NCBI GenBank assembly: GCA_964479175.1
Contig: CAYZLT010000001.1
Span: forward strand, 25,428 to 64,338
DNA from: an uncultured Solibacteraceae bacterium
GTDB lineage: Bacteria; Acidobacteriota; Vicinamibacteria; Vicinamibacterales; SCN-69-37
Length of the DNA: 38,911 bases
Direction of reading: 5' to 3'
Position 1 is the first letter of the stretch, and every line of letters begins with the position of its first letter. This document shows, one piece after another, positions 3,001-25,840 of this stretch. Under the pieces are notes generated by a model. The model did not search any database and was not told where the DNA came from. It saw only the letters and a program-made list of their open reading frames with translations. The translations under genes and the position numbers were made by a program.

Positions 3001-4637
3001 GTTTTTGGCAGACTGAGGGCAGGCACGAGCACGATGTCCCACGGGTCGATCTCATGCGCGTCCACAATGGCCGCGCGCATCGCCTGAAGGACGTCATCGG
3101 GCGCCATGGAGCGCGCCTGCGTGCGCGGCACCTCCTGCACGAGCACAAGCCGCTCCTGGTCACCCTCGTCCACGCTGAAACAGGATGCCAGTCCGCGCGC
3201 GAGTGATGGATGTGACGCGGAGGCCGTCGCTTCGATGTCCTGCGGATAGTGATTGCGCCCGCGGATGATGACCAGGTCCTTGATGCGACCCGTGACGAAG
3301 AGTTCCCCCTCGTGCAGGAGACCAAGATCGCCGGTCCGCATGAACGGACCGTCACCCTCGGCCGTCATCGCCTGGAACGTTTCAGCCGTCGCCTCATCCC
3401 GTCGCCAGTACCCGGCGGCGACTGAGGGTCCAGCGACCCAAATCTCGCCAACGCGCCCATCGCGACGTTCCCTGGTCTCGGGATCGACGATGGCGATCTG
3501 CAGCCCATCCACCGGTGTGCCGCACCCGACGAGATATCGCGCCTGCGGACTCGACGGGTCTGCGGCCGGACGCACCTCGTGTTGCTCGAGCGCGTCGGCA
3601 TCGGCCGCGAAGTACACGGGATCACCCGTGACCTCCGACCCGGTGACAATCAGCGTCGATTCAGCCAGGCCGTAACACGGATAAAACTGACGGGGATGGA
3701 AGCCGCACTGCGCGAACGCCTTCGCAAACGCGTCCTGCGTTTCGCGGCGGACGGGCTCGGCGCCGTTGTACGCCGTTTCCCACGCGCGCAAATCCAGCGT
3801 CGCCTTCTGCGCGTCGGTCACACCCAGCAGGCACGCTTCGTACGCAAAGTTCGGCCCGCCGCAGTGGGTGCCGCCGTACCGCGTGATCGCCTCAAGCCAC
3901 GTGGCCGGACGCTGAATAAATGTCGACGGCGCCATCAGATGCGCCGGAAACCCCGTGTACAGCGGCTGCAGAACGCCATCGATCAGGCCCATGTCGTGGA
4001 ACGACGGGAGCCAGCAGACACCAACACTGTGAGGTCCAAGATGAAACGACGTCCGCAGACATTCCGAGTTGTGGACGATGTTGGCGTGGGTGACCATCAC
4101 ACCCTTGGGCGTCGACGTGGATCCGGACGTGTACTGCAGCAGCGCCAGATCGGATCCGACGGGCAACACGCTGCTGCCGGGAATCGCATCGGCCGCCACG
4201 ACATCGATCGTGTCAATCCGGCGGAGCGTCAACGGCAACGTGCTCAGCCACTCATCCACCTTCGCCGAGCCCACATCCCCGACCAGCACCACTTGCGGCT
4301 CCGCGTCGTGCACGATCGCGTCAAGCCTCGCGTGATGGCGACGATTGCGAGGGGGGTAGGCGGGAACAGCAATGACGCCGGCCGCCAGACAGCCCAGAAA
4401 AGCCGAAACAAACTCCAGACCGGGGCCATACAGCAGCAATGCCCGATCCCCGAGACGGGTCGCCTCTCGAAGATGAGCGGCGATCGCATCAACGCGACGC
4501 GCCAATTGGACATAGGTCAGCGTCTCAGTTTGAGCGCCCGCGTCGTTCAGCCAGGAAAACGCCAAGGCGTCGGGCCGCCGCGATGCGTGTTCCCTGAGTC
4601 GGTGAAGGAGCGTTTCTGGCTTTTGATGCACACTCAT
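1..4637 (-). CDS. Hybrid fatty acyl-AMP ligase / type I polyketide synthase (FAAL-ACP-KS-AT...), 3' end beyond the left window edge
   Basis: Not in the ORF track because the frame stays open through position 1. My reverse-complement translation from the ATG at 4637..4635 reads [30 protein letters not shown].... It contains [18 protein letters not shown] and [12 protein letters not shown] (acyl-AMP ligase cores), LGVDSLAA (carrier Ser), DTACSSSL (KS Cys), GHSVGE (AT Ser) and ends ...[11 protein letters not shown] at the edge. All checked motif codons share one phase (highest coordinate = 2 mod 3), so this is a single continuous frame of at least 1545 codons. Confidence 0.92.
100..1022 (-). other. 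Acyltransferase domain (Ser codon 741..743), approximate bounds
   Basis: [33 protein letters not shown] motifs. The post-AT YPF linker lies at the window edge. Confidence 0.85.
1311..2573 (-). other. Ketosynthase domain (active-site Cys codon 2064..2066)
   Basis: [14 protein letters not shown] start, [48 protein letters not shown] end. Confidence 0.9.
2600..2825 (-). other. Acyl carrier protein domain (phosphopantetheine Ser codon 2730..2732)
   Basis: [24 protein letters not shown]... is a typical carrier-protein helix II with a DSL serine. Confidence 0.85.
2841..2867. repeat. 9-bp tandem repeat x3 (gYgatttga) inside the FAAL-ACP linker
   Basis: Plus strand reads gtgatttga gtgatttga gcgatttga. 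On the coding strand it encodes [10 protein letters not shown]. It is locally AT-richer than the flanks. Confidence 0.9.
2950..4637 (-). other. FAAL / adenylation-type acyl-AMP ligase domain of the PKS (approximate bounds)
   Basis: [52 protein letters not shown] motifs in the order expected for a fatty acyl-AMP ligase loading domain. Confidence 0.85.
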
Positions 4638-4718: not shown

Positions 4719-5531
4719 GTGTATTACGCGCCAGTGTTTGATTCATGGATTTCTGTCACAACTCCGCGGCCCGATGGCACGTGGCGTCTCGTCTGTTTCC
4801 CTCACGCAGGCGGGGGCGCGTCGTCGTTTTTTTCGTGGTCACGCGAACTCGCCCACATTCCGGTTGAGGTTGCCACACTCAGGTTACCGGGGCGTGAAGC
4901 ACGTCTGCTCGAGGCTCCCCTTGATGACCTGCCGACCCTCGTGTCGCACATCGATGAGGCGCTTGAGGCCTTTGGCGACGGACGGCCGGTCGTGTGGTTC
5001 GGACACTCGTCAGGTTCGCGGATCGCGTTTGAAGTCGCCCGCCGACGACGCGCGCGTGGCCGATCCTTGCCGGTCCATCTGGTCGTGTCCGGCGCACCAG
5101 CCCCCGATGTGGTGCGGTCGACGCCCACACTGCATCGCATTGCCAGTGATGATGAGTTTTTACATGCCGTAGCGAGCGCGTACGGCGGGGTCCCTGCTGC
5201 GGTCATGGAGCACCAGGAACTGCGGGCACTGGTCGCACCCGCGCTTCGCGCCGACCTCAAGATGCACGAGCGCTACGTGTACACGGTCGAAGAGCCACTG
5301 CCCTTTCCGATCACGGCCTTCGGGGGTTCGGCCGACACGTCGGTGTCAGAAGCCTGGCTTCGCGGGTGGGAGCGGCACACGGCAGGCGAGTTTCGCTGGC
5401 AGATGTTTCCCGGGGATCACTTCTATCTGCATGAACCCGGGATGCGCACCGAGTTGCTTCGGGCGCTGGTGCGACGCGTCGGTACGGTCCAGGGTCCTGC
5501 AGGGTCCAAGGTCCAGGATTCGTCGCACTGA
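4719..5531 (+). CDS. Type II (editing) thioesterase, alpha/beta hydrolase
   Basis: RLVCFPHAGGGASSF, GHSSGS nucleophile elbow and a GDHFYL C-terminal His motif. Divergent from the PKS. The start is ambiguous (GTG 4719 or GTG 4734). The last ~16 aa are encoded by the GGWCC repeat cluster. Confidence 0.8.
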   Translation: MYYAPVFDSWISVTTPRPDGTWRLVCFPHAGGGASSFFSWSRELAHIPVEVATLRLPGREARLLEAPLDDLPTLVSHIDEALEAFGDGRPVVWFGHSSGSRIAFEVARRRRARGRSLPVHLVVSGAPAPDVVRSTPTLHRIASDDEFLHAVASAYGGVPAAVMEHQELRALVAPALRADLKMHERYVYTVEEPLPFPITAFGGSADTSVSEAWLRGWERHTAGEFRWQMFPGDHFYLHEPGMRTELLRALVRRVGTVQGPAGSKVQDSSH

Positions 5532-5572
5532 ACCTTGAACCTTGGACCCTGGACTCTGTCGGACCTTGGACC
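5486..5572. repeat. Cluster of GGWCC-based 12-mers forming inverted repeats between convergent genes
   Basis: ggtccagggtcc (5486..5497) matches the reverse complement ggaccctggac (5544..5554). ggtccaaggtcc (5503..5514) has an exact reverse complement, ggaccttggacc, at 5561..5572. There are eight GGWCC-type pentamers (one degenerate) in 87 bp. Confidence 0.8.
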
Positions 5573-6495
5573 TAAAAGGTGATCTGCAGACCCGCGGTCA
5601 TCAGGACCTGGCTCTTGTTGTTCAGACGCAGCGGCCGGGTGCCCACTCCCGGAATCGGCACCTGGGCGACGGCCAGCGAGAGCACGTTGTCGTACTTGTA
5701 GGTGAAGTCCACACTCGTGCCGAGGTATTTGTTGAGCTTGCCCTTCAGGCTGATGTTGCCCTCAAACACACGGAACGCCGAGTCGTTGAACGCCTGCTGG
5801 AATGACGCGCGCTGCTCGATGCGCACAAACGGGTTCGGCGTGATGATCAGGCGCTGAATCCCACCCCAGCCCATCAACCAGCGGTCATCAAACTCTGCCA
5901 GGCCCTTGCTCTCACGCTGAAGACCGAGGACCGGCACGAGTCCGATCTTCACCTTCGGCTGATCGAGCGCGAGCAGGCCGACACCGGTAAATACCTGGTG
6001 CGAGTAGTCCACGTTCCGCACGTCGTCTTTGTAGAACGCATACCGGGTCAGGAAAAAATACCGCTGACCATCACGCTGCCGGAAGTCGTAGTCGATCGAA
6101 AACTTCGGCAGGTCCATGACGGTGCCGACGGGGTCAACCACGGCGTAGGTGTAGGACGCTTCGATGCTGACCGCGTTCAGGTTGGTCGATCGCAACAAAC
6201 TGAACGTGCCCTGAAATGACTTCTGTTCGCCCTTGAGGCCAAGTGCTTCGCCTGTGAGGCCAGGAATGCCTGGATCGAGCTGACCCTGACGGAAAGGAGA
6301 TGACGTTATCGACCCTCCGAGGGTGATCGACCGCACCCAGAAGGTGTTTCCAGGAGGAACGAAGCCTCCCATTCCTGGGACCGGGGCCGGCGGCGGAGCC
6401 GGCGGCTGTTGCGGAGGGGCAGGCGTTTGTGCCGCGGTTGACGTCGCGATGACACAAAGAAGTAACGAGAGTGTGAGTAGACGAACTGAACGCAT
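5572..6495 (-). CDS. Outer-membrane beta-barrel protein, DUF481-like
   Basis: Signal peptide MRSVRLLTLSLLLCVIATSTAAQ, Pro-rich linker, alternating beta-strand pattern, C-terminal ...GLQITF. Start taken at the internal ATG 6495 rather than the track start 6534. Confidence 0.6.
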   Translation of the reverse strand: MRSVRLLTLSLLLCVIATSTAAQTPAPPQQPPAPPPAPVPGMGGFVPPGNTFWVRSITLGGSITSSPFRQGQLDPGIPGLTGEALGLKGEQKSFQGTFSLLRSTNLNAVSIEASYTYAVVDPVGTVMDLPKFSIDYDFRQRDGQRYFFLTRYAFYKDDVRNVDYSHQVFTGVGLLALDQPKVKIGLVPVLGLQRESKGLAEFDDRWLMGWGGIQRLIITPNPFVRIEQRASFQQAFNDSAFRVFEGNISLKGKLNKYLGTSVDFTYKYDNVLSLAVAQVPIPGVGTRPLRLNNKSQVLMTAGLQITF

Positions 6496-6517
6496 GAGCG
6501 AGAGATTAGCACGGTGG

Positions 6518-6547
6518 TTGCGAGTCTCCATCAACGTCCGCTATACT
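6518..6547 (+). promoter_or_regulatory. Candidate sigma70-type promoter (TTGCGA-N18-TATACT) for the DUF697-like gene
   Basis: TTGCGA at 6518..6523 and TATACT at 6542..6547, about 50 nt upstream of ATG 6597, which is preceded by GGGAGGA. Confidence 0.4.
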
Positions 6548-6596
6548 TCGCCTCGTCAGTTTGCAAATACGCACCGTGTGTGCGGGAGGAATCGAG

Positions 6597-7031
6597 ATGA
6601 GCGACAAGGATCTACAGGCCCAGGAAGTTGTCAAGAAATACGCCACCTACGCGGCGGGTGCGGGTCTGATCCCGATTCCGACCCTCGACATGGCGGCGAT
6701 CGCCGGTGTCGAGCTCAAGATGCTCGCCGACCTTTCCAAGGTCTACGACGTTCCTTTTGAGAACGATCGTGTGCGGCCGATCGTGGCGGCGGTCATCGGC
6801 GGCTATGTGTCGGCGAACCTCGGCGCCGGCGCCGGTGGCAGCCTGCTGAAGGCCGTGCCGATTTTCGGCACCGTGCTCGGCACCCTCGCCGTGCCGGCCT
6901 TCGCGGCGGGTCTCACGTTCGCCATCGGCAAGGTGTTCACGCAGCACTTCGCCTCCGGCGGCACGTTCCTCGACTTCAACCCCGAGAAGGTGCGCGAGTA
7001 CTTCAAGACGCAGAAGACCTCGGTCGCGTAA
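6597..7031 (+). CDS. DUF697-like small membrane-associated protein
   Basis: KKYATYAAGAGLIPIPTLDMAAIAGVELKMLADLSKVYD and LLKAVPIFGTVLGTLAVPAFAAGLTFAIGKVFTQHF match the pattern I recall for DUF697/YcjF-type domains. GGGAGGA lies 6 nt before the ATG. Confidence 0.6.
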   Translation: MSDKDLQAQEVVKKYATYAAGAGLIPIPTLDMAAIAGVELKMLADLSKVYDVPFENDRVRPIVAAVIGGYVSANLGAGAGGSLLKAVPIFGTVLGTLAVPAFAAGLTFAIGKVFTQHFASGGTFLDFNPEKVREYFKTQKTSVA

Positions 7032-7062
7032 CACGCGCCCAGGTTTCGACGTTGCACTTCCG

Positions 7063-7099
7063 CCGGTTCATCCCTTCGGGGATGGACCGGCGTTTTTTT
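7063..7099 (+). terminator. Rho-independent terminator
   Basis: CCGGTTCATCCC - TTCG loop - GGGATGGACCGG (12-bp stem, one G.T pair), followed by a T7 run. Lies 32 nt after the stop at 7031. Confidence 0.8.
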
Positions 7100-7108
7100 A
7101 TGGGCACG

Positions 7109-8323
7109 CTACTCCAGCGTGACGGCGACGTCCCGGCCGGTCACGATCGCCTGATTCGCCAGGATGCCGACGATCGATGCGCGTGCGCCCTCGGCCAGTG
7201 AACAGGCCACCGGTGCTCCGTCGGTGACACTCTTCAGAAAATCCATCAGTGCGTAGTAGAGGGACGGGTGCGGCAATCCCACGCCGGCCTGCAGGTTGCC
7301 CTGCTCGGCCAGTTGCGTGGCATTGGCGATGAGCACGATGCCTTCTTCGCTGAAGATCTGCTGACGAGTGGCGTAGACCTCCCACCCTTGCGTGGGTGCG
7401 TCGGCCTCCTTGAACAGCCACCCGTGTGTCCAATTCAACCGAATCGAACCATTCACACCGTTCACGACCTCCCACTGCCCCCCGTACGAGTTGGCGAGTG
7501 TGGCGCTGTACCGCATCGCCACACCATCTGCCCAAATCAGATCGAGGTCGATCGTGTCGGCTACGGTGCGCCCGTCCTTGTGATGACGCACGCCGCCGCG
7601 TCCGGCCACACGTGTCGGGTACGACCCGCGCCACCAGTGCGCCACATCAAATTGCTGCGCACCCACCTCACCGGCCAGTCCAATCGAGACTGCCGGGTCG
7701 AGACGCCAGTTGGCCTGTTCACCCGAGTCGCCTCCGCTGGCCGGGAATCGCCACGACGTCTTCCGGTGCCACTGCCCGGCCATCGACACCAGGTCGCGCA
7801 GCTCGGTGCGCACGAGAGGTTGCGCGCGTTTGTACGTGGGATTTGATCGTCCCTGAAACCCCGCCTGACAGATCGTTTCTGACGACGTAGCGGCGGCCAC
7901 CATCGCGCGGCAGTCCTCGACGGTTGATGCGATCGGCGCCTCACAGTACACATGACGGCCGTCCGCAAGAGCGTCTTCCACAATCGCGCGATGCAGATGA
8001 GTCGGCGTCGCCACCACAATCGCGGTCACGTCCGGTCGCTGCTCGAGCATGACCGTGTGGTCGGTGAAGGTCGCGGCCGACTGCGCGCGCTGCGTGGCCA
8101 GCGCCAGCCGTGCTTCCGACCGATCACACACGGCCGCGATCTCGACCTGCGGGATCTTCTGAAGTTCCGTGATGATCGCGCGACCATGCCGGCCGGTCCC
8201 CACGACGCCGACTTTGACGATGATGCCTTGCTGGAGAAATGGGAGAAGGTCAGCCGCCGTCGGCAGCAGCGCCACACCACCAAAGGCGCTGAGTGTCTGA
8301 CCGATAAACGCTCGTCGGTCCAT
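7109..8323 (-). CDS. Gfo/Idh/MocA-family oxidoreductase with Tat signal
   Basis: MDRRAFIGQTLSAFGG twin-arginine leader, VGVVGTGRHGR Rossmann motif. Last gene of the OMP / Cache-channel / SBP operon (3-nt gap to the SBP stop). Confidence 0.8.
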   Translation of the reverse strand: MDRRAFIGQTLSAFGGVALLPTAADLLPFLQQGIIVKVGVVGTGRHGRAIITELQKIPQVEIAAVCDRSEARLALATQRAQSAATFTDHTVMLEQRPDVTAIVVATPTHLHRAIVEDALADGRHVYCEAPIASTVEDCRAMVAAATSSETICQAGFQGRSNPTYKRAQPLVRTELRDLVSMAGQWHRKTSWRFPASGGDSGEQANWRLDPAVSIGLAGEVGAQQFDVAHWWRGSYPTRVAGRGGVRHHKDGRTVADTIDLDLIWADGVAMRYSATLANSYGGQWEVVNGVNGSIRLNWTHGWLFKEADAPTQGWEVYATRQQIFSEEGIVLIANATQLAEQGNLQAGVGLPHPSLYYALMDFLKSVTDGAPVACSLAEGARASIVGILANQAIVTGRDVAVTLE

Positions 8324-8326
8324 GGC

Positions 8327-9496
8327 CTACCACTCGAACGGCACGAGCTTCTCCCCTCGGACCATCGTCAACCAGACGTGATGGCTGCCCTGATGTTCCT
8401 CGCGGGAGAAGCGGAAGGGTTGTCCGACCCCGATGTCGATGGTGCCGAGGCGCTCAAAGGCCTCGATGATCCCTTCGCGCGTGACCGTCGCCCCACTGAG
8501 CGCACGACCAAACGTGCGCGCCGCCAGGAAGCCCTCGAGCGATACGGGTCCAGGTTGTGTGCCTGGAAAAAAGCGTGCAAGTGCCGATCGATACGCGGTG
8601 ACCGCCGGAAGGTCGGCCTCGTAGTGCGGCACCACCTGCGTGATGATGACTCCCTCGCTGTCGGGCCCGAGCGCAGCAATCAGCGCCTCCGATCCGACAA
8701 ACGACACGTTCAGATACGTCACATTGGACAACGCTTGTTTTGCCAGCGAAATGAACTTGGCCGACGCGCCGTACGAACCCACCATGATGATTGCTCGCGG
8801 GCGCACTCGCGCCTGCATGATGGTCAGCAATCCGTCGGCCACATCCAAGGTCCCGCGTTCGTAGCGGCCGTGCGCGAGTATCTTCGCTTCCGGATACCCG
8901 AGTGATTCGAGCGCCGCCACCGCGCCCTGATGCCCGGAGTCGCCGTACGCGTCGTTCTGTGTGAAAAACGCGATCTGCTGGGGCTTGATGCCGCGGCGCA
9001 GCAGGCCACGGACCATGACGCCGGTCTCCTCCGCATAACTCGCGCGGAAGTTGATGACATATCGATCGGGAGGATTTTTTCTGAGCACGTCGGCGCCCGA
9101 GAAGGCGCCAAAGAGCAACGTCTTTCGTTCGTTGGCAATTGGCACCGCCACGGTCGCTCCGGCCGTCCCCACACTGCCGATCACCGCCAGCACCTTCTCC
9201 TGGTCGATGAGGCGCATCATGTTGCCGCGCACTGGCTCCGCCTGATACGCATCGTCAAGTGCAACCAGCCGCAGGCGGTACCCGGCGATGCCGCCAGAGG
9301 CATTGGTTGACTGGATGAACGCCTCAATTCCCATGCGCATGCCGCGACCAAGCTGGCCGGACGGGCCACTCAGCGCGGCCGACATGCCCAGGACCACCTC
9401 GCGCTGCACGGTGTTGACCGATGCCGACCGCACCGGGATCCCCACAAGAATCACGGCTCCCGCACACGCCGCCAGAATCGAGTGACGCATCTTCAT
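8327..9496 (-). CDS. Periplasmic binding protein type I (LivK/Peripla_BP_6-like), orphan
   Basis: Signal peptide MKMRHSILAACAGAVILVG, LGMSAALSGPSGQLG, NVSFVGSEAL. Its ATG overlaps the upstream stop by 1 nt (TGATG at 9494..9498). Paralogous to the 12815..14071 product. Confidence 0.85.
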   Translation of the reverse strand: MKMRHSILAACAGAVILVGIPVRSASVNTVQREVVLGMSAALSGPSGQLGRGMRMGIEAFIQSTNASGGIAGYRLRLVALDDAYQAEPVRGNMMRLIDQEKVLAVIGSVGTAGATVAVPIANERKTLLFGAFSGADVLRKNPPDRYVINFRASYAEETGVMVRGLLRRGIKPQQIAFFTQNDAYGDSGHQGAVAALESLGYPEAKILAHGRYERGTLDVADGLLTIMQARVRPRAIIMVGSYGASAKFISLAKQALSNVTYLNVSFVGSEALIAALGPDSEGVIITQVVPHYEADLPAVTAYRSALARFFPGTQPGPVSLEGFLAARTFGRALSGATVTREGIIEAFERLGTIDIGVGQPFRFSREEHQGSHHVWLTMVRGEKLVPFEW

Positions 9497-11628
9497 CAGT
9501 AGAACACCACAAAGGTGATGACGGTAATCGCCGTCAGAATCACCGGCCAGTACAACAACTTCGGAATGATGTGATCGCCCTGCTCAAGTTTGGGAAAGTG
9601 TCCCGTATAGGTATTGGTCAACGTGATCAACGCCTGGCTGAGAATGGCGGCATAGACGACGAAGTAGAAGTACTCGATATACAGAATCGCCGAGCTCGAC
9701 ATTCTGCGTCGCAGATCAAGTTCCGACAGAATGAGGATGAAAAACAACCCTGAGAATGCGGCCAGCATCTGGACCACGTTGCTGCGAGTGTTGGGATTGA
9801 CCACCAACAACAAGGTGAACACCATGAAGCTGGAGACGGCAATCGGCAACACGCTGGAAAACAGCGGCTCAAGGATCTTGCGGTTGATGATGACGTTGAA
9901 TGCCAGCTCGTTCGCCACACCACCGGCCGAGTCGGCGATACCAAATGAGGTGTTGCGATTTGAGGCGAGGTTGCTGAACTGTGTCCGCGCGACCGACCAC
10001 CCGGGCAACGTCATGTCTTTTTCGAGCCCCAATCGCGCCAGGGGGTGAATGATTTGGTACGACTCGAGATCGGGGATCAAAATCACGCCCTTGTCGAGGT
10101 CCTGGTGCCGAATCCTGAACCGGAAGTCCTGCTGGTCAAGCGGGTACTTCGCATAGTCAAAACTCTGCCGGACCTCGGCCTTCACAAACCACCCAATCGT
10201 CTCTGAGTCCGGGTTCTTGCGCCGATACGCCTCGCGTACGGTGACGTCTGACGCTTCCGGCAGCAAAAAGCCGCGCGTGATGGTCTCCGGAATATTGGCC
10301 GGATAGGTCTGCCAGACGTAGCCGCTGACCTGGATGTTGTTGGGGCCAATGAGCTCAAACGTCTCGAGAATCACGCCCGTCGGCACAAATCGCGGCAACG
10401 TGCCACTGCGCTGCAGGGATGTGCGGGTGGTGTCGAGCACAAATTTGCGCACACTGCCGGCATTGGCAAACACCGTTTGCCCCTCAACGGGCGGCGCGGG
10501 CGCTCCAAACCCGTGTTGCCACAACATGCCGATGCCCACCACCAACATCAGGCAACTGGCGACCACCCCGCCCCACAGGACAAAGATCCTGCCGTCGGAC
10601 CGTTTCAGGATGGTGCTCCACAGGGTCAGCAGACACGCCAGCAGCACGGCCACCGTGATCGTCATTTTCTGGCGGCGGAACATCCGGATGTTCTCCGCCT
10701 GCTGCTGGAAGAACACGATGCCGACGGTCCAGCCGGTGGAGGGAACCGACCTCGACAGAATCCAACTCGCTTCTCCGGTCACCGGGTCGATCAGATTCTC
10801 GATCACGTCGACGCCGGCCGTCCGAGCGGCGTCAAAGATCCGCTGCGCCTGAACCAATGTGCCGGACCTGGCGGCGGCCGCCGGATCGAGATCACCGGAC
10901 TCATCGCCGAATTCCTGCGCGAACGGATGCGAGATCGCGAAGCCGTCTTTCGAGATCAGGAATCCATACCCGACATCCCCGAGGTCGAGGGACTGAATCA
11001 GGTCATCCACTTCAGACAGCGACATCGTCGCGTGCACCACACCGGCGGTGGCCTGCGGGGTTGACGAGGCAGGGTCGGAGAACGGAGTGGCATACTCCAC
11101 GACCGGCCCCTGTTCGCTGTCGGTCGACGGTTCGGTCCAGCCCCCGGCGGACGTGGTGCCGACCTGGTACCAGCGGGTCTCGCCAAGGGTGTAGTCGTAG
11201 AGCGAATCCAGCGGAACAAACACGGTGGATTCGCCCTGCCGTCGGAACGACGGCGCGTGCAGGCGCAGGTTCGGGTCAAACCGGTGCGGCATGAACGCCG
11301 CGCCAACGGCGAGCAGTTGTGGCGTGATGTCGATCGCCCCCTGAAGTCGGGTGGGCACCTCAGCCTTCGGCACGCGGCCGCTGCTGATGTCTGCGGCGAC
11401 GGCGTTCACCACGGCGGGAACCCGACTCAGCTCCGCATCAATGACATTGGCCGCGCGTTCCGCCTCCCTGGCCGCCCGCTCCCGCAATGCGGCGCTCGCG
11501 CGGCTGGAGCCGATCACGTAGAACACCAGGAGCGTCAGCGCGACGGCAAGACTCGCCCACTTCAGGTAATCAACGTACCGAAGCCACGGCCATTGAGCCG
11601 GGGTCACACCGGGCGTGGGATCACTCAC
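9496..11628 (-). CDS. Double-Cache sensor fused to a pentameric ligand-gated ion channel (pLGIC / Cys-loop family)-like module
   Basis: N-terminal TM, then a ~280-aa periplasmic region with dCache-like features (RWYQVG...GGWTEP, GVVHATMSLSEV, GYGFLISKDGFAISHP). Next come two TM helices and a ~200-aa beta-rich domain carrying the Cys-loop-equivalent signature KYPLDQQDFRFRI and the pre-M1 FNVIINRKILEP. Four C-terminal TM helices follow in an M1-M4 arrangement. GTG start at 11628. Confidence 0.65.
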   Translation of the reverse strand: MSDPTPGVTPAQWPWLRYVDYLKWASLAVALTLLVFYVIGSSRASAALRERAAREAERAANVIDAELSRVPAVVNAVAADISSGRVPKAEVPTRLQGAIDITPQLLAVGAAFMPHRFDPNLRLHAPSFRRQGESTVFVPLDSLYDYTLGETRWYQVGTTSAGGWTEPSTDSEQGPVVEYATPFSDPASSTPQATAGVVHATMSLSEVDDLIQSLDLGDVGYGFLISKDGFAISHPFAQEFGDESGDLDPAAAARSGTLVQAQRIFDAARTAGVDVIENLIDPVTGEASWILSRSVPSTGWTVGIVFFQQQAENIRMFRRQKMTITVAVLLACLLTLWSTILKRSDGRIFVLWGGVVASCLMLVVGIGMLWQHGFGAPAPPVEGQTVFANAGSVRKFVLDTTRTSLQRSGTLPRFVPTGVILETFELIGPNNIQVSGYVWQTYPANIPETITRGFLLPEASDVTVREAYRRKNPDSETIGWFVKAEVRQSFDYAKYPLDQQDFRFRIRHQDLDKGVILIPDLESYQIIHPLARLGLEKDMTLPGWSVARTQFSNLASNRNTSFGIADSAGGVANELAFNVIINRKILEPLFSSVLPIAVSSFMVFTLLLVVNPNTRSNVVQMLAAFSGLFFILILSELDLRRRMSSSAILYIEYFYFVVYAAILSQALITLTNTYTGHFPKLEQGDHIIPKLLYWPVILTAITVITFVVFY

Positions 11629-11631
11629 GTG

Positions 11632-12732
11632 TTAAAAAATTCCTGCGCGCTTGAGTCGCGCCGTGGGATTGACGATGACGATCAGGTCAAAGCGGTGATT
11701 GACCGGGACCGGGAACGTGTTGTCGAAGGCCTTGGTGTGGTACCAGATGAGCGACATGTCGGCGGTCACTGGGAACGTGCCGATCGTATACCACCGCTTG
11801 CCGACACCGTAGCGGTCACCATTGACGGTGGGAATGTAGGACCGATCCACGGACATGACACCCGCATTCACCGTCAACTTGCCAAACTTCAAGTCCACTG
11901 ACGCGTTCAATCCCTTGCCCTTCGGAGTGCCGGTGAACGTATTGGTCCCGGTCCGCTCCAGGTCCGACACGCGCTGATAGGCCTCGAATCGCACACCGGT
12001 CACCACCTTCGCAGCCGCAGGCGTCCGAATCACGAGAGCCTCGCGGAGGATGTCACGACCGTCTTCGTGCGTGTAATCGACCGACGCGGTGACCCGTGGC
12101 GTCAGCCTGACCCCCAGCAGGACCTGCCCGTAGTTGTAGTCAAAGCTGTCATCCAACCGGCGGAACACGTTGGGCTGGGCCACACCAAAGTGGCCGATGG
12201 TGCCCGACAGTTGGGTGATGCGCCCGGAGGTGGGCCGCACGGTGACGCGTTGACCCACGAGGTAGCCGTCCATGTCGTAGGAGATGTTCTCGGACACGTC
12301 CCCGCGGTTCGGGCCGAGGCCACCCACCTGCAGTTCCAGCCCAGAGACCGGTGCCGCGGACAGGAAGAGATGGCGCATCCAGAACTTGCCAACGAAGTCG
12401 CCCTTCCCCATACCCGTATCGTTCCAACTGGCAACGTACGTGGGGCCCGCAGAGGCCATCATGTTGACGCTGTATTTGCCGGCCGCGTCAAACAGCAGTC
12501 GCCCACGCGTCAGGCCGTGCCACTGAATACCGTCGGCGGTAACCACCTCGGCGGAGGTCTTGTTCCACCGATATCGAAGTCCCGCCTGCACTGCCTGCAC
12601 ATCGAGCCATCGTCGAATCGCCGGCGGCTCCGCTGGAGCGGCCGGGGCGGGTGTCTGAGCCAAGGTGGAGACGGGGGTCGCCAGGGCGGCGAGTCCGAAC
12701 ACGGCAAGCGATGCGAGATGAGGACGAATCAT
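11632..12732 (-). CDS. Outer-membrane beta-barrel (porin-like) protein
   Basis: Signal peptide MIRPHLASLAVFGLAALATPVSTLAQ, alternating strand pattern, C-terminal ...LKRAGIF. Start taken at ATG 12732 (ATG 12753 is also possible; the track start 12813 is unlikely). Confidence 0.65.
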   Translation of the reverse strand: MIRPHLASLAVFGLAALATPVSTLAQTPAPAAPAEPPAIRRWLDVQAVQAGLRYRWNKTSAEVVTADGIQWHGLTRGRLLFDAAGKYSVNMMASAGPTYVASWNDTGMGKGDFVGKFWMRHLFLSAAPVSGLELQVGGLGPNRGDVSENISYDMDGYLVGQRVTVRPTSGRITQLSGTIGHFGVAQPNVFRRLDDSFDYNYGQVLLGVRLTPRVTASVDYTHEDGRDILREALVIRTPAAAKVVTGVRFEAYQRVSDLERTGTNTFTGTPKGKGLNASVDLKFGKLTVNAGVMSVDRSYIPTVNGDRYGVGKRWYTIGTFPVTADMSLIWYHTKAFDNTFPVPVNHRFDLIVIVNPTARLKRAGIF

Positions 12733-12814
12733 TGCGTGGAGATTGTCCTTCATTACGGGCGTTGTTCCAATCCTGCTATCCTCTCGTCTCTTATCCCTTT
12801 GGAGGACGACCATC

Positions 12815-14071
12815 GTGACGCGACGTTCGGTCTTGATCAGTGCAATCGTGGTGGGCGCTGTGGGCCTGTCGGCCGCTCAGCCGCCCAAAGCCACCGAGGG
12901 GGTGTCGCCAACCTCGATCACGATTGGGATGTCCGCCGCCTTCACGGGAGCCTCCCGCAGCCTCGGCATCGAGCTCTTCCGCGGGTCGATGGCCTACCTG
13001 GCCGAAGTCAATCGCAATGGGGGCGTTCACGGCCGCCAGATCAGGATTCAGGCATACGACGACGGGTATCAGCCGAACGCGGCGATGAAGAACTCCCTCA
13101 AGTTGATGCTGGAAGACGACGTGTTCCTGCTGTTCAACTATGTCGGAACGCCCACGGTCACCCGTGTCCTGCCACTGCTGAAGAAGTATCAAAACCTCCA
13201 CTTTTCCCTGTTTTTCCCGTTTACAGGCGCACAGCCGCACCGCGAACCGCCGTACGGGTCGCTGGCGGTCAACCTCCGAGCCTCCTATCGGCAAGAGACG
13301 CAGGGGCTGGTCGATAACTTCCTGACGGCCGGCCGGTCGCGCATTGCGGTGTTCTACCAAGCCGACGCGTACGGTCGGAGTGGCTGGGTCGGCGTACGCG
13401 AGGCGCTCACAAAGAAGGGCCTCAAGATCGCCGGCGAAGCCACCTACACCCGGGGCACCAAGTACTCGGAGAGCCTCGACCGGCAGGTGGCGATCATGCA
13501 GGAAATCAAACCTGACGCCATCATTTCCATCGGTGCCTATGAGGCGTGTGCGGCATTCATCCGTGATGCCCGGAAGGCCGGCCTCGATGTGCCCATCGCA
13601 AACGTCTCGTTTGTCGGCAGCGAAAGCCTCCTGGCCCTGTTGAGCGCATCGTCGGCCACCGACGACCGCGACTACACGGTGAACCTCGTGAACTCGCAGG
13701 TGGTGCCCAGCTACGAAAGCGCCACCGCGCCGGTCGTGCGCGAATACCGGGCGCTGATGGAGAAACACCAACCGGACCCGCCGCAGGGGTTCGGCGACGC
13801 CGGCTACAAAATGTTGCCCTACAGCTTTGTCAGCCTCGAAGGGTTCCTGAACGCAAAACTGCTGGTCGAGGTGCTCAAGCGCATGGGCCCATCGCCGCAA
13901 CGCGCACACATTGTGTCGACGATCGAGCAATTGTCCAACATCGAATTGGGCATGGGCACGCCGGTGTCGTTTTCGCGCGAGCGGTATCAAGGGTCGGACG
14001 CGATTTATTACACCACGGTGCGCGACGGACGCTTCGTGCCCATTACGAACTGGCAGGAGTGGCGAAAGTGA
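12815..14071 (+). CDS. Periplasmic binding protein type I (LivK/Peripla_BP_6-like), orphan paralog
   Basis: GTG 12815 preceded by GGAGGA at 12801..12806. Signal peptide VTRRSVLISAIVVGAVGLSAAQ. IGMSAAFTGASRSLG, NVSFVGSESL and the C-terminal FSRERYQGS parallel the 8327..9496 protein. Confidence 0.85.
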   Translation: MTRRSVLISAIVVGAVGLSAAQPPKATEGVSPTSITIGMSAAFTGASRSLGIELFRGSMAYLAEVNRNGGVHGRQIRIQAYDDGYQPNAAMKNSLKLMLEDDVFLLFNYVGTPTVTRVLPLLKKYQNLHFSLFFPFTGAQPHREPPYGSLAVNLRASYRQETQGLVDNFLTAGRSRIAVFYQADAYGRSGWVGVREALTKKGLKIAGEATYTRGTKYSESLDRQVAIMQEIKPDAIISIGAYEACAAFIRDARKAGLDVPIANVSFVGSESLLALLSASSATDDRDYTVNLVNSQVVPSYESATAPVVREYRALMEKHQPDPPQGFGDAGYKMLPYSFVSLEGFLNAKLLVEVLKRMGPSPQRAHIVSTIEQLSNIELGMGTPVSFSRERYQGSDAIYYTTVRDGRFVPITNWQEWRK

Positions 14072-14799
14072 GAATCGCGAAACTCTTTCAAAAAACAATG
14101 TTCGGGATCTTCCTGTTGTTCGGGTTGATTGCGGTTTCCACCTCAGCGTTGTGTGTTTATACGGTCGACAAACAACTGTCGACCGAATACGAGGCCAACA
14201 GTCGCACGATTGCGCAGACGATCGCCAACTCCAGTCTCGATATCATCCTCAATCGCGACCTGTCCACCCTGCAGTCCCTCATTGACCAGTTCAAGGAACT
14301 CCAGGGCATCAAATACATCTATATCGTCGACGAACACGGCGACTGGCTGGCGCACACGTTTGTGCCGGGGATTCCGAAGGAAATTCAGTCGGCCGACCGC
14401 ACACCGGGCGCCACCGTTGAGCGGCAGTTGCCTGGGTTTGGCGAATTCGTCGAGGTCTCGAGCCCGATTCTCGACGGAATCGCCGGATCGGTGCACGTGG
14501 GCATGGACAAGGGCCTGATTGCGCTGAAGATTCAGACCGCGATCGGCCAGCAGATCTACCTGATCTCGATCATCTTCATCGTGTCGATCATCGGGTCCTA
14601 CCTGCTGGTGAATCTGGCCGCCAAACCCATCACTCGCCTGGGTGGCTACGCCACACATCTGGTGGCACCCGATGCGCCCAACGCGCTGACGCCAGACGAA
14701 GCGCAGGCGCTCCTGGAGCGGGCCGATGAAGTCGGCCAGATGGCGCGCCTCTATCGCCATCTGGCGCTGCGCAGCGAAGGCGCGGAACTCGCGCCGTGA
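14059..14799 (+). CDS. Membrane protein: periplasmic PDC/Cache-like domain + HAMP, with no output domain
   Basis: TM1 FGIFLLFGLIAVSTSALCVY, a ~130-aa periplasmic domain, TM2 IYLISIIFIVSIIGSYLLVNLAA, then a HAMP-like KPITRLGGYATHL...DEVGQMARLYRHLA, then the stop. Alternative GTG 14068 would give a GTGA overlap with the SBP stop. The stop overlaps the MFS GTG (GTGA at 14796..14799). Confidence 0.65.
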   Translation: MAKVRIAKLFQKTMFGIFLLFGLIAVSTSALCVYTVDKQLSTEYEANSRTIAQTIANSSLDIILNRDLSTLQSLIDQFKELQGIKYIYIVDEHGDWLAHTFVPGIPKEIQSADRTPGATVERQLPGFGEFVEVSSPILDGIAGSVHVGMDKGLIALKIQTAIGQQIYLISIIFIVSIIGSYLLVNLAAKPITRLGGYATHLVAPDAPNALTPDEAQALLERADEVGQMARLYRHLALRSEGAELAP

Positions 14800-16142
14800 C
14801 CGAAGCGGCACCGACCAATCGCTGGCTCGTCGCCATCATGGGCACGATCCTGCAGTTATGCCTCGGGACGGTGTACGCCTGGAGCTTTTTCCAGGCGATG
14901 CTGGTGAAGTCGTACCGCTGGTCGTATACCGACACGGCGTGGGCGTTCAGCCTGGTCATTTGCACTCTCGGAATTTCAGCCGCGTGGGCCGGCGTCAACC
15001 TGCCACGCTTCGGGCCGCGCAAACTGGCCGTCACCGGCGGCTTGTTGTTCAGCTTGAGCTACATCCTCGGTGGCCTGGCGCTGCACCTCGAAAGCCGCAC
15101 GTTGTTTTACCTCGGCTACGGCGTGGTCGGAGGATTCGGCATTGGTCTGGGCTACGTCACGCCGGTCTCTACCGTCGCCAAATGGTTCCCCGATAAGAAG
15201 GGGCTTGTCACCGGCGTCGTCGTGATGGGTTTCGGCATCGGTGCGTTTGTGATGAGCAAGGTGCTGGTCCCGCTGCTGCTGCACGCGACCGACGGCGACC
15301 TTGTGTATGTATTTGTCTCGCTGGGCGTTTTTTTCGCCATGGTCCTGCTGCCCGTGGCGATGTTCATGAAGGACCCACCAGCAGTTGCGGCCGCGGCAGC
15401 GGTCTCAACGACCGTGGTCACACCGGATCTGCCCACGAGTCACTACCTGAAGTCGAGCCAGTTCCTCATCATGTGGCTGGTCTTCTTCTGCAACATCACC
15501 GCCGGTATCTCGGTCATCAGTTTTCAGTCGCCTCTGCTGCAGGAAATTTGGGGGCTGGCCGACCCGACTGCGGAACCGGCCGCGCTGGCCACCTACGGAG
15601 CGACACTCATTGCCGTCAGCTCCCTGTTTAACGGCGTCGGGCGCTTGCTCTGGGGCATGATTTCCGACCGCATCGGACGCGTTGAGAGTTTCCGGCTCCT
15701 GCTCGCCTCCCAGATGATCGTGTTCGGCGTGTTGATGACCGAACGGGATCCGTGGATCTTCAGCGCACTCGTCTGTTATGTCCTACTGTGTTTTGGAGGC
15801 GGATTTGGCACGATGCCGTCGTTTGTCATCGATGTCTTTGGCGCCAAACGGATGTCGGTGATGTACGGCACGTTGCTCACCGCCTGGGCGGCCGCCGGCG
15901 TGGTCGGGCCCATGCTCGTGGCATCGGTCAAGGACTACTATCCGGACCGCGCCGTCCTCTATTGTTTCCTCGTCGGCGTCATGTTCCTTGGTGCGGGGTT
16001 TATTTTTTCGTTCCTGGCAACCAACGAACGGTGTGTTCCGGGGAAACCCGCACTCGACGATCTTGGGATTGCTCCCGAATATCTCCCAGCACCACGTACG
16101 CGGTTGACCACGCGTCACACAGTCGCGCCGACGGCCCCGTAA
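14796..16142 (+). CDS. MFS transporter, oxalate/formate antiporter (OFA)-like
   Basis: 12 predicted TM helices. The N-terminal LQLCLGTVYAWSFF and the GYVTPVSTVAKWFPDKKGLVTG loop are characteristic of OFA-family MFS proteins. Confidence 0.8.
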   Translation: MTEAAPTNRWLVAIMGTILQLCLGTVYAWSFFQAMLVKSYRWSYTDTAWAFSLVICTLGISAAWAGVNLPRFGPRKLAVTGGLLFSLSYILGGLALHLESRTLFYLGYGVVGGFGIGLGYVTPVSTVAKWFPDKKGLVTGVVVMGFGIGAFVMSKVLVPLLLHATDGDLVYVFVSLGVFFAMVLLPVAMFMKDPPAVAAAAAVSTTVVTPDLPTSHYLKSSQFLIMWLVFFCNITAGISVISFQSPLLQEIWGLADPTAEPAALATYGATLIAVSSLFNGVGRLLWGMISDRIGRVESFRLLLASQMIVFGVLMTERDPWIFSALVCYVLLCFGGGFGTMPSFVIDVFGAKRMSVMYGTLLTAWAAAGVVGPMLVASVKDYYPDRAVLYCFLVGVMFLGAGFIFSFLATNERCVPGKPALDDLGIAPEYLPAPRTRLTTRHTVAPTAP

Positions 16143-16796: not shown

Positions 16797-18101
16797 TCAG
16801 AGCTTGCGAACCTTCCCCGTGCGCGGGTCGAACCCGAAGGCGGCCCGTTCCCAGAACGACCGCTGCGCCAGATCCACGATCACCATGACCTTGGTGCCCA
16901 GTTCAACGTCACTCATCGGCTTTTCCCGCGTGCGGATGCAGTCCACCCAGTGGCGGCGCAACATCTCCTGCGGGTCGAGCACCTCGCCTTCTGGTGCAAT
17001 CTCGCGCTCTTCGATCTCGTCCGCCCAGATGCGCTCGGGCCTGATGATCGCGTTGCGGCCGCCGACAAACAGGTTGGCCTTGTGACCGCGGATGATGCGC
17101 TCGAGGCCCAGCTCATTACACGTCGACCCGGCCACGACCATCGTGTGGTCGTGCTCGAAATCAATGTTGATGTTGATCTGGTCCGGGTTCTCCATGGCCT
17201 TGTCGATCATGTGGCCACCGGTCGCGACGACACGGATGGGCCACCCGACATTCAGCGCCTTGAGCGTCGGCGTCACGTGATGCACCAGAAGGTCGCCAAT
17301 GATGCCGGACGAGTATTTCTTGTAGCGGCGCCACCGGGCGTAAATCTCCGGATTCCACGCGGCCTTGCCAAGGGGTTTGCACCACTGATCCCAGTCGAGA
17401 TTGCCTCCCGGCGTCCAGGCCGGGTCAATCGCGTAGTACGTCCACTCGCCGGTCTTGGTGTTGCGGCAATAACTGGTCTGACTCCACACCGGCTTGCCGA
17501 TCGCGCCTTCTGCGATCAGTTTCTCCGCGGCGACGTACGACGGCGTCATCACAAACTGCGTGCCGACGACGACAATGGCGGAAGGGTTGGCCTGGACCAC
17601 TTTGCGGAGACGCTGGGCGTCCTTGAGGTTCAAGGTCATCGGCTTTTCGACGTACACGTCTTTGCCGGCCTTGATGGCGTCTTCGGCCATGCGCCCGTGC
17701 CAGTGTTCAGGCGTGGCGATCAGGACGCCATGAATGTCTGGACGGGCGAGCACTTCTTCATGACGACGATAAGTCGCGATGTCCCCACCTTGCACTTTGT
17801 CGACGCGTGCCTTGGCATTGGCCACTCGGGGATCACACAGGTCACACAGCGCCTCAAGGCGGACCGGCCGTCCATCACGGGCGTTCCTGGCGAAGGCTTC
17901 CGCATGGCCTGTTCCCATGCCGCCCGTGCCGATGACCGCGATCTTGACGACATCGTTCGGGCCCAATGCGGGGCGGGGCTGCGCCGCAGGAATGGGTTCC
18001 AGATCTTCGGCCGCCTCGGCCTCTCGACCGGCCAGCCCCGCAGCGACCGCAGCCGCCGCGGTGGTCTTGAGGAAGTGACGACGGGATTTCGGGGTGGTCA
18101 T
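16797..18101 (-). CDS. Gfo/Idh/MocA-family oxidoreductase with Tat signal
   Basis: [20 protein letters not shown] leader, [13 protein letters not shown] Rossmann motif, EKPMT motif. Confidence 0.85.
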
Positions 18102-18997
18102 TTGGTCATCTCCGTACGGATTTTTTCGAGGAGCGCCTTGGTCCTGGCAATGCCTTCTCGTTCAGGAAGTTTGGATCCCTCGTATTCAATGCCGACCCAC
18201 GACCGGTACCCGGCATCAAGCACCGTCTTCATCAGGCGGCGATAGTCTTTCTGTGCCTCGTTGCCCTGCTCGTCGAAGTCATGGGACTTCGCTGACACCG
18301 CCTTGGCAAACGGCATGAGGTCGGCTACGCCCTGATAGCGGTCGTATTCGTAGAAGTTGCCAAAGTCAGGCAAAGTGCCACAGCGGGGATGGTCAACCAT
18401 CTTCATGACCCCGGAGAGCCACTTGCCGTCTGACGACAAGCCTCCGTGATTTTCGACGACCACATTGAGGTTCATCGGCGCGGCCAGCTCGGTCAATTTT
18501 CTGAGGCCATCGGCGGCGAGTTTCTGCTGTTCCTCGAATGACCCGACACTGGCGGCGTTCACACGGATGGTCACACACCCGAGCACCTTGGCGGCATCGA
18601 GCCACTTGCGGTGATTTTCGACGGCGGTCGCGCGGAGGGCCAGGTCCGGATCACCCAGCCGGCCCTCGCCGTCACACATGATCAGGTACTGCGTCACGCC
18701 CTCATCAGCCGCGCGTGTGTTCATCTCCGCGAGATACGCCGAGTCGCGCGCCTTGTCCTTGAAGAAGGAATTGACGTACTCAATCGCCTCGATCCCGAAA
18801 TCGCGTTTCGCCACGCGCGCAAAATCGAGGTGGTCGATCTCTTTTGCGCGCAGTGTGCGGTGCAGCGACCACTGCGCCAGGGAGATTTTGAACAACGGCG
18901 CGGGCTGCGCCGCCGACAGCACCCCGGAAAACGGCGTCAACGCCACGGCGCCGACGGTGGTCTGAAGGAAACTTCGTCTGGTCCACTCGTGTGTCAT
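18098..18997 (-). CDS. Xylose isomerase-like TIM-barrel (sugar phosphate isomerase/epimerase family) protein with Tat signal
   Basis: [15 protein letters not shown] leader. IEYVN, IRVNA, VVENHGG and WVGIEYEG strand-end motifs. ATGA start/stop overlaps at both ends (18098..18101 and 18994..18997). Confidence 0.8.
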
Positions 18998-20163: not shown

Positions 20164-20182
20164 GGTTCATGGTGCTGGGTTC

Positions 20183-20210
20183 TGTGTCCCAAAAAGTGTG
20201 TCCCAAAAAG
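20183..20210. repeat. Perfect 14-bp tandem direct repeat TGTGTCCCAAAAAG x2, 20-47 nt upstream of the operon start codon
   Basis: Copies at 20183..20196 and 20197..20210 are identical. On the minus strand they read CTTTTTGGGACACA x2 immediately upstream of ATG 20163. Confidence 0.9.
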
Positions 20211-20227
20211 ACGTCGGGTGTCTTTTT
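20205..20227 (-). terminator. Weak AT-rich hairpin with U-run (possible terminator of the propeller gene)
   Basis: AAAAAGAC - 7-nt loop - GTCTTTTT. It overlaps the second direct repeat. Confidence 0.35.
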
Positions 20228-20252
20228 CGTTCCAAGCCCTCCAGCAGTGCAC

Positions 20253-20308
20253 GGAGTGTGGCCGGCGTACGCTCACGCACGGCTACGCCGTCGTTCAAAT
20301 CACACTCC
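20253..20308. repeat. Nested inverted repeat (structured intergenic element)
   Basis: Outer arms GGAGTGTG (20253..20260) and CACACTCC (20301..20308). Inner arms CGGCGTA (20263..20269) and TACGCCG (20284..20290). Confidence 0.7.
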
Positions 20309-20330
20309 ATCACGTCCTCGTCTCATCCGA

Positions 20331-22157: not shown

Positions 22158-22202
22158 GTCAGGACAATACGTGCGGGCTCGGGCAGTTCGTTCCGGCTAT
22201 TC

Positions 22203-25820: not shown

Positions 25821-25840
25821 GACCAGTAGCGTAGATCAGG

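Follow-up and report, generated by a model that had tools for sequence, protein, structure and literature searches.

We analysed a 38,911-nucleotide stretch of DNA from an uncultured Solibacteraceae bacterium (contig CAYZLT010000001.1, positions 25,428 to 64,338; hereafter the window), and within it an operon of four minus-strand genes that encode a porin-like protein, a channel subunit carrying a Cache domain, a type I solute-binding protein (SBP), here termed SBP1, and a Gfo/Idh/MocA oxidoreductase. The conserved functional unit in this operon is a two-gene pair, channel then SBP1, which is translationally coupled. We propose that SBP1 is a signalling co-sensor that modulates the Cache-channel, a predicted ligand-gated ion channel of the pentameric type (pLGIC), and that the porin-like protein and the oxidoreductase lie outside the conserved unit. 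We place the probability of this reading at roughly 0.55, which is slightly better than even. Contact between SBP1 and the channel, gating, and ion conduction are what we infer here.

The linkage was surveyed in 79 channel loci from species-representative genomes, comprising approximately 1,000 genes, and in nine metagenomic or genomic contexts of closer relatives. All ten acidobacterial relatives that could be evaluated (48-93% identity) carry an SBP1 ortholog immediately after the channel. The order channel then SBP1 was seen in loci L002, L004, L007, L080-L086, L172, and L173, and the junction in relatives is either an overlap of 1 to 16 nt or a gap of at most 25 nt. In three gammaproteobacterial loci (L012, L016, and L022), the channels show only 27-30% identity, and SBP1 orthologs with 43-47% identity are encoded upstream of them in divergent orientation. 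Moreover, at six loci (L017, L018, L026, L028, L034, and L043; five annotated as Gammaproteobacteria, the taxonomy of L026 not having been cross-checked), a Peripla_BP_5 gene sits directly downstream of a Cache-pLGIC gene on the same strand. Its product is UrtA/AmiC-like (approximately 440 bits; from the BLAST cluster, the proteins of L017 and L034 were searched with Pfam), and no ATP-binding cassette (ABC) genes were found within 10 kb at these six loci. This arrangement is an independent recruitment of another type I binding protein. The original prediction, made from the letters of the window alone, had suggested that the gene neighbourhoods of channel homologs would tell whether the channel and the binding protein belong together; in the comparison reported here, the linkage recurs across phyla and in three different arrangements.

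Twelve of the 13 SBP matches in the 79 loci are immediate neighbours of a channel. The exception, in L014, is the SBP2 of a divergent module that is described further below, and there a porin gene lies between SBP2 and the channel. An adjacent type I SBP gene accompanies 11 of 44 Cache-linked channels versus one of 35 Cache-less channels.

SBP1 itself is a Peripla_BP_6 protein (176.5 bits in Pfam, covering 339 of 343 profile positions) with an N-terminal hydrophobic leader visible in the sequence. It is approximately 50% identical to the uncharacterised structure 4kv7 (E 6e-91), of which the literature searched holds no mention. Scores against the NCBIfam models for LivJ/K (45.7 bits, cut-off 477) and UrtA (26.5 bits, cut-off 492.75) are approximately ten-fold too low for an ABC-receptor equivalog, and SBP1 has no permease or ATPase linkage. 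Its gene lies beside that of a membrane transducer, without a cognate transporter, which is the arrangement by which co-sensor SBPs such as LuxP, BasB, and TorT are recognized.

A reverse survey of 80 metagenomic loci with SBP1-family genes (37-58% identity) found Cache-pLGIC neighbours in only four. The 49 same-strand downstream neighbours of these genes carry HAMP (17), HATPase_c (14), MCPsignal (8), GGDEF/EAL (7), and sCache_3_2 (3) domains as identified by Pfam, and none carries an ABC domain. Open reading frames (ORFs) resembling ABC ATPases occur in four of the 80 loci, none of them downstream of the SBP on its strand (the one in L088 is a divergent upstream neighbour) and none in the SBP-linked channel loci. 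In one clade of the family, the binding protein is fused via a transmembrane (TM) segment to a Ser/Thr kinase domain (Pkinase; L132, L135, and L142) or to DUF4388 (L133 and L145). Given these signalling neighbours and fusions, and the lack of ABC partners, we regard SBP1 as a member of a signalling-dedicated binding-protein family with interchangeable outputs. It had been allowed at the outset that an ABC partner of the binding protein might lie elsewhere with conserved linkage; none appears among the 49 downstream neighbours, and the family adjoins signalling proteins, not transporters.

The partners of the SBP1 family also inform the question of where such proteins dock. Among partners with two TM segments (L088-L141), which are chemoreceptors, histidine kinases, and GGDEF/EAL proteins, 29 of 30 share one periplasmic domain of approximately 300 aa. 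This domain looks all-helical from its sequence composition, has no Pfam match and no PDB sequence match, is unrelated to the Cache domain of the channel (hhalign probability 0.5%), and may represent an unannotated SBP-docking sensor domain. The generalization that SBP1-type proteins always dock on Cache was rejected on these grounds. In a neighbour-joining tree, which is rough and carries no support values, the channel-linked SBPs of Acidobacteriota and Gammaproteobacteria group together and the sCache-linked SBPs group together elsewhere, which suggests that SBP clades track partner type.

Hydropathy and the positive-inside rule give the channel protein a topology of TM1, periplasmic dCache, TM2-TM3 hairpin, periplasmic pLGIC extracellular domain (ECD), and M1-M4, and hydropathy places the second of the helices flanking the dCache at residues 321-342. 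Pfam sees only Cache in this protein, as it does across all 50 homologs examined; for the channel sequence alone, dCache_1 reaches 30.9 bits, under the 45-bit cut-off. The dCache structure 3li8 is recovered at E 8e-20 with a profile built from 33 homologs. This part of the protein fits the definition of a dCache_1 sensor domain, a double PAS-like module that has a long N-terminal helix and lies between two TM helices. A sequence-only proof of the channel did not succeed: phmmer against the PDB returned only Cache matches (PctB, Mlp24, and HK1S-Z), Pfam and NCBIfam returned nothing in the C-terminal half, and a profile of Cache-less relatives reached E ~0.5. Because these searches failed, fold comparison was needed. 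The AlphaFold2 model (mean predicted local distance difference test, pLDDT, 69) was compared by Foldseek with 3lic, 3lib, and 3li8 (E ~1e-11, target-normalised template modelling score 0.71-0.75) and with GLIC (6zgk_A; E 1.3e-9, probability 1.00, 319 columns, score 0.59). In this model the hairpin helices span residues 315-343 and 348-373 and the ECD strands fall within 413-583.

Conserved motifs accompany the fold. Y495, P496, L497, D498, and R583 are at least 90% conserved among the 33 homologs and constitute the YPLD of the Pro-loop, whose general form is [FY]-P-x-D in the beta6-beta7 loop, and the pre-M1 Arg, and the Pro-loop motif aligns colinearly to the Cys/Pro-loop of GABA-rho1 and GLIC in a hidden Markov model (HMM) alignment. 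Moreover, pLGICs are the sole PDB profile matches to the C-terminal region. On the basis of modelled fold and motifs, and not of sequence statistics, we consider the prediction of a dCache-fused, GLIC-like pLGIC subunit to be right. The channel module defines a large clade: at E <= 1e-3 it matches 1,486 clusters formed at 50% identity, mostly proteins of approximately 700 aa.

We hypothesize that a small periplasmic solute would be captured by SBP1, that liganded SBP1 would then dock on the periplasmic face of the channel, and that docking would shift the gating equilibrium, so that a chemical cue could drive an ion flux or alter the membrane potential. The likeliest docking site would be the Cache domain, by analogy with LuxP-LuxQ and BasB-BasT. 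In both of these systems the contact between binding protein and receptor is direct. Docking on Cache is favoured by the enrichment of SBP genes beside Cache-fused channels, by the pairing of the paralogous SBP2 with an sCache protein, and by the precedents of BasB/BasT and LuxP/LuxQ, in which the receptors are dCache-like (PMC8050422).

Several observations weigh against this reading. An adjacent SBP is missing from three quarters of the Cache-linked channels, which as a family can therefore do without it, and the Fisher p of ~0.01 for the excess beside Cache-linked channels is only indicative, the loci being phylogenetically non-independent. The roughness of the SBP tree counts here as well. 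Since most SBP1-family partners carry a non-Cache domain, Cache is not the usual docking surface of the family. The pLGIC assignment rests on fold and motifs because the Pfam models Neur_chan_LBD and Neur_chan_memb are silent (no match at E <= 0.01, nor any precomputed in the 50 homologs), the pLGIC matches of the profile in the PDB are marginal (E 0.045 for GLIC, and 0.46-0.86 with a second profile), and the modelled helices of the TM domain (588-608, 612-642, 646-673, and 687-709) have low pLDDT values of 44-66. In addition, the register of M2 is ambiguous, with R615 as either 0' or -1', so that conduction and ion selectivity cannot be read from the sequence.

The main competing explanation is a hand-over, in which SBP1 concentrates the ligand and the free ligand binds the orthosteric or Cache pocket of the channel with no signalling-competent complex being formed. 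Most Cache-channels work without an SBP, and the near-invariant residues D145, Y146, W153, E178, and H199 in the pocket region of the Cache domain are compatible with a ligand site of its own. Amino-acid dCache sensors of the PctA type carry an Asp that binds the amino group of the ligand and an R-x-W-Y motif. In an alignment to PctB, W153 and Y154 of the channel align, the position of the Asp is taken by T201, and the Arg is displaced; assignment to this type was rejected, and the replacement of the Asp also speaks against hand-over. A role of this kind was proposed for operons of type II periplasmic binding proteins (PBP-II) and pLGICs (Tasneem et al. 2004, PMC549065). We nevertheless consider it unlikely for SBP1, given that in the characterised SBP-dependent sensors tabulated in a review, such as LuxP-LuxQ and BasB-BasT, the binding protein acts on the sensor domain of the receptor (PMC8050422) and that the tracking of partner type by SBP clades suggests a specific interface.

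The original prediction had, as a hypothesis, joined all four genes into one envelope-spanning module, in which a solute passes the barrel, undergoes capture or modification (here taken as oxidation) in the periplasm, and gates the channel. Its account of the genes holds: the identities of all four proteins are borne out (by Pfam, profile, AlphaFold2 with Foldseek, and, for the Tat leader, by reading the sequence), and the tight packing is confirmed at the sequence level. The porin/channel junction reads TAA-cac-GTG and the SBP1/oxidoreductase junction TAG-gcc-ATG, each a 3-nt gap, and the channel ends in TAC TGA, which with the ATG of SBP1 forms TGATG, a 1-nt overlap at 9496. All junctions are thus of at most 3 nt, and the four genes share one terminal hairpin, the probable end of the transcription unit as judged from sequence. 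Terminator-like sites inside the unit are weaker than this hairpin and show no excess (7 found versus 4.9 +/- 2.6 in shuffled sequence). The porin and the oxidoreductase are probably co-transcribed with the channel-SBP1 pair in this genome. Coordinates of these genes, of the domains of the channel, and of the divergent module are collected in the table below.

Table. Features of the operon and of the neighbouring divergent module, in positions of the window
Feature	Positions	Strand	Basis
G+C-rich hairpin of 14 bp, with the oxidoreductase and DUF697 genes converging on it; transcription unit probably ends here	7061-7092		Sequence
Gfo/Idh/MocA oxidoreductase, 404 aa	7109-8323	-	ORF call, Pfam
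SBP1, Peripla_BP_6 binding protein, 389 aa	8327-9496	-	ORF call, Pfam
Cache-channel subunit (predicted), 710 aa from GTG start, 7 predicted TM helices	9496-11628	-	Profile, AlphaFold2 with Foldseek, hydropathy
Predicted pLGIC TM domain M1-M4, aa 586-710, very short M3-M4 loop	9499-9873	-	Hydropathy, AlphaFold2, GLIC fold match
Predicted pLGIC extracellular (periplasmic) beta-sandwich, aa 385-585, with Pro-loop FDYAKYPLDQQ and pre-M1 Arg	9874-10476	-	AlphaFold2, conservation, HMM alignment
TM2-TM3 hairpin, aa 321-373, returning the chain to the periplasm; cytoplasmic turn KRSDGR	10510-10668	-	Hydropathy, AlphaFold2, positive-inside rule
Periplasmic dCache_1 domain, aa 46-320, between TM1 (aa 21-45) and TM2	10669-11493	-	Pfam, PDB phmmer, profile, Foldseek
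Porin-like protein, 366 aa from ATG at 12732, N-terminal signal-peptide-like segment	11632-12732	-	AlphaFold2 with Foldseek
SBP2 - sCache_3_2 stub - MFS module, divergent from the operon	12743-16142	+	Pfam, NCBIfam
TM-sCache_3_2-TM-HAMP-like stub, 246 aa, without output domain	14059-14799	+	Pfam, NCBIfam
Major facilitator superfamily (MFS) transporter, lactate/oxalate-formate type	14796-16142	+	Pfam, NCBIfam

Two start sites allow alternatives. The channel has a second GTG at 11607, 21 nt further in, which gives the 703-aa form chosen by gene callers for the identical protein P0001, and the porin-like ORF has further in-frame ATGs upstream at 12753 and 12813.

Both accessory proteins are predicted to reside in the envelope, which is consistent with a four-part module. 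The porin-like protein has no Pfam or NCBIfam match. Its AlphaFold2 model (pLDDT 79, predicted template modelling score 0.74) is all-beta, and Foldseek pairs it with general porins of 16 strands, namely OmpU, the porin of Rhodopseudomonas blastica, OmpF, and PorB (E 3.5e-10 to 1e-8, probability 1.00, template modelling scores 0.5-0.6), such that the protein is modelled as a 16-strand porin-like barrel. The oxidoreductase combines PF01408 (GFO_IDH_MocA; 84.5 bits) with the C-terminal domains PF22725 and PF02894 and reaches no NCBIfam equivalog (best score 96.8 versus 355 bits). Its leader, MDRRAFIGQTLSAFGGVALLP (starting MDRRAFIGQ), reads as the twin-arginine type and looks like a twin-arginine translocation (Tat) signal. 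Moreover, the four-gene order recurs at 92% and 82% identity, and an Alginate_exp-like outer-membrane barrel precedes the paralogous SBP-sCache-MFS trio in L170.

Against an obligate module of four genes, the part of the original prediction that does not survive, stands the pattern of conservation across relatives. The porin gene is found upstream of the channel only in relatives of at least 71% identity and is absent in those of 48-54%, which retain SBP1. The oxidoreductase is confined to relatives of at least 82% (present at 92% and 82%; absent at 78%, 71%, and approximately 50%), its slot being occupied by DUF697 at 78% and by a peptidase M1 gene at 71%. SBP1 is thus kept without both, and no homolog of either gene occurs at the gammaproteobacterial SBP-channel loci. 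The idea that the porin family is specifically tied to channel or SBP genes was likewise rejected, as three homologs (45-50% identity) lie in unrelated neighbourhoods. From this pattern, the porin was recruited upstream in one acidobacterial sub-clade, the oxidoreductase was added still later, and both are late accretions outside the conserved machine; they may improve ligand access or modify the ligand. An obligate four-gene module is therefore improbable, and what stands of the envelope-spanning proposal is the link between SBP1 and the channel.

Far less probable is that the linkage is coincidental or regulatory, with SBP1 serving as a conventional receptor for uptake by an ABC transporter whose genes lie elsewhere, and sharing with the channel no more than its expression. 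Judged by Pfam and NCBIfam, SBP1 does lie closest to ABC binding proteins of the Liv and urea types, and orphan SBPs that feed distant transporters exist. However, no ABC permease or ATPase is encoded in the window (Pfam, NCBIfam, and a Walker-A/LSGGQ scan), in agreement with what had been noted from the letters alone, and none lies within 10 kb of any SBP-linked channel locus. The LivJ/K and UrtA scores given above, the signalling neighbours of the SBP1 family in dozens of loci, and the conservation of the channel linkage across phyla all argue in the same direction. Equally remote is a pLGIC-like module that serves as a non-conducting scaffold or receptor with an output other than ion flux: the clade is too divergent for the Pfam Neur_chan models, the predicted M2 is strongly hydrophobic with no acidic ring at the cytoplasmic mouth, and the literature searched holds no electrophysiological recording of a clade member, but the ECD and four-helix architecture, Pro-loop, pre-M1 Arg, and Phe/Leu near 9' are kept over approximately 1,500 clusters (50% identity), and all characterised proteins of this fold are channels.

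The concept of a binding protein cooperating with a bacterial pLGIC is itself 20 years old. Tasneem, Iyer, Jakobsson, and Aravind (2004) described pLGICs fused to MCP-N/Cache or to type I periplasmic binding protein (PBP-I) domains, as well as operons with stand-alone PBP-II or Cache genes, and predicted, without testing, chemoreceptor-like roles for them (PMC549065). As in the protein described here, their channels carry a dCache (then termed MCP-N plus Cache) N-terminal to an ECD and four TM helices. They came from Methanosarcina, Cytophaga, and Microbulbifer, lineages that were also recovered here (L035 and L040-L048). Unlike those systems, the present SBP is of type I (Peripla_BP_6, or Peripla_BP_5 in some loci), is encoded in trans, is paired specifically with the Cache-fused form, and belongs to a family dedicated to signalling, points absent from the 2004 paper. 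In the literature searched, no SBP-pLGIC pair is reported after 2004. What is new here is a signalling-type type I SBP encoded in trans, conserved with a Cache-fused channel across phyla, from a family without ABC partners.

Known co-sensor systems share part of this design. In BasB-BasT of Halobacterium salinarum and LuxP-LuxQ of Vibrio, the gene of a secreted type I SBP likewise lies beside that of a dCache-like receptor and serves signalling only, BasB being a Peripla_BP_6 protein (Matilla, Ortega, and Krell 2021, PMC8050422). Their output is a chemoreceptor or histidine kinase, whereas here it would be an ion channel. The outputs listed in the same review of SBP co-sensors are chemoreceptors, kinases, cyclases, and Ser/Thr kinases, and the term "ion channel" has no occurrence in it (PMC8050422). 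Precedent for sbp genes adjacent to sensor genes is also given in one further source (PMC11113362). While SBP1 has the type I periplasmic binding-protein fold (Peripla_BP_6) of LivJ/LivK and UrtA, it differs from them in falling far under the NCBIfam cut-offs and in lacking a permease or ATPase, here and at homologous loci.

Among pLGICs, DeCLIC was as of 2025 the only one with a characterised N-terminal domain (PMC12664993, PMC9897478). DeCLIC is likewise bacterial, and its gating is modulated by an accessory N-terminal domain in the periplasm; this Ca2+-sensing domain is made up of two beta-rich lobes joined directly to the ECD. Here, in contrast, TM helices flank the dCache, with three extra ones in each subunit, and a separate SBP is linked genetically. 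GLIC and ELIC share the ECD and TM domain fold, the Pro-loop, and the short M3-M4 loop, but they lack the extra N-terminal modules, and their sequence similarity to the present channel is marginal (profile E 0.045-0.57).

A role in physiology is known for none of the prokaryotic pLGICs (PMC4795631). The Cache-fused clade is large (approximately 1,500 clusters at 50% identity) and invisible to the Pfam channel models, and a conserved, translationally coupled soluble SBP1 offers a practical route to a ligand and to de-orphanising this unannotated clade. If SBP1 does act as proposed, the outputs of binding-protein co-sensors would extend beyond chemoreceptors, kinases, and cyclases to ion channels, and eukaryotic channels whose ligand-binding domains have the PBP fold would gain a bacterial counterpart.

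Divergent from the operon lies a paralogous module that the earlier description of the locus, accurate for the four operon genes, had missed. Its SBP2 is a Peripla_BP_6 paralog of SBP1 (36% identical, E 4e-59), followed by the sCache_3_2 stub and the MFS transporter with overlapping junctions. The trio is divergent and co-conserved with the operon in every relative of at least 71% identity, and its order is also conserved on its own in distant genomes (loci noted: L080-L082, L085, L086, L170, and L171). The stub family comprises 769 matches, always of approximately 240-250 aa, which are 60-93% identical among the 120 best matches listed. From its gene content, the trio looks like a binding-protein-dependent or binding-protein-regulated MFS system, no description of which was found in the literature searched, and it may be a more novel object than the channel-SBP1 pair. 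A broader and more tentative view, which we consider less likely than not, is that the locus contains two back-to-back paralogous modules of type I binding protein, Cache, and permeation protein, in which signalling SBPs plug via Cache into a pLGIC and into an MFS carrier. If this were so, the locus would hold the first binding-protein-gated pLGIC together with an undescribed three-component SBP-dependent MFS system, analogous to TRAP and TTT transporters.

Some related loci present features of their own. The channels of L003, L005, L008, L020, and L030, which come next to the acidobacterial clade in similarity (31-33% identity; three of the loci are cyanobacterial, one is actinomycetotal, and L003 is from an unclassified bacterium), have EgtD-like (Methyltransf_33) and EgtB-like (FGE-sulfatase/DinB_2) ergothioneine-synthesis genes convergent and just downstream, which may hint at the ligand class of these channels. 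In L173, genes for ExbB, ExbD, and TonB and an ORF of 128 aa (1760-3952) lie directly upstream of the channel-SBP1 pair (53% identity) on the same strand. L014, labelled as an Acidimicrobiia metagenome-assembled genome from Lake Tanganyika, has the gene order of the window with 69-79% protein identity; it is probably mis-binned, since the bin belongs to Actinomycetota and all other close relatives are Acidobacteriota (Vicinamibacterales). In L019 (Candidatus Anammoxibacter), two Cache-pLGIC genes stand in tandem on one strand (9947-14355), which could allow heteromeric channels. In L074 (Streptomyces sp. AHA2, 6520-10948), one ORF joins Peripla_BP_6 to a canonical pLGIC TM domain (Neur_chan_memb, E 4.7e-5), and the gene directly after it, in another frame, encodes a second pLGIC, which belongs to the present clade; such an arrangement would place a PBP-I-pLGIC fusion and a short channel in tandem. 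Its use as a Rosetta-stone fusion for the present clade was rejected, as the fused channel is of the canonical, Pfam-detectable type and lends support at the superfamily level only.

The operon is flanked in the window (4719-7031) by genes for DUF697, a DUF481 outer-membrane-type protein, and a thioesterase, which in relatives (L081, L085, L086, and L172) adjoin a hybrid polyketide synthase/nonribosomal peptide synthetase gene of approximately 4,750 aa; in the clade of 48-50% identity, DUF697 and DUF481 lie upstream of the channel, not downstream. Beyond the divergent module, on the minus strand, positions 16797-23015 encode two further Gfo/Idh/MocA oxidoreductases, a xylose-isomerase-like TIM barrel, a beta-propeller of the pyrroloquinoline quinone (PQQ) type, and a 3-keto-disaccharide hydrolase. 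In gene content this cluster resembles a set for 3-keto-glycoside catabolism, and there may be a relation to the Tat-type oxidoreductase of the operon. At 23043-29669, also on the minus strand, a gene for a TPR-CHAT protein of 925 aa is followed by a DUF1501/DUF1800 pair, and the same pair adjoins a porin paralog in L168. A haem-copper oxidase-like cluster on the minus strand (31573-35213) comprises COX1, a fusion of FixO and cytochrome c, and a dihaem cytochrome c resembling SoxA/TsdA.

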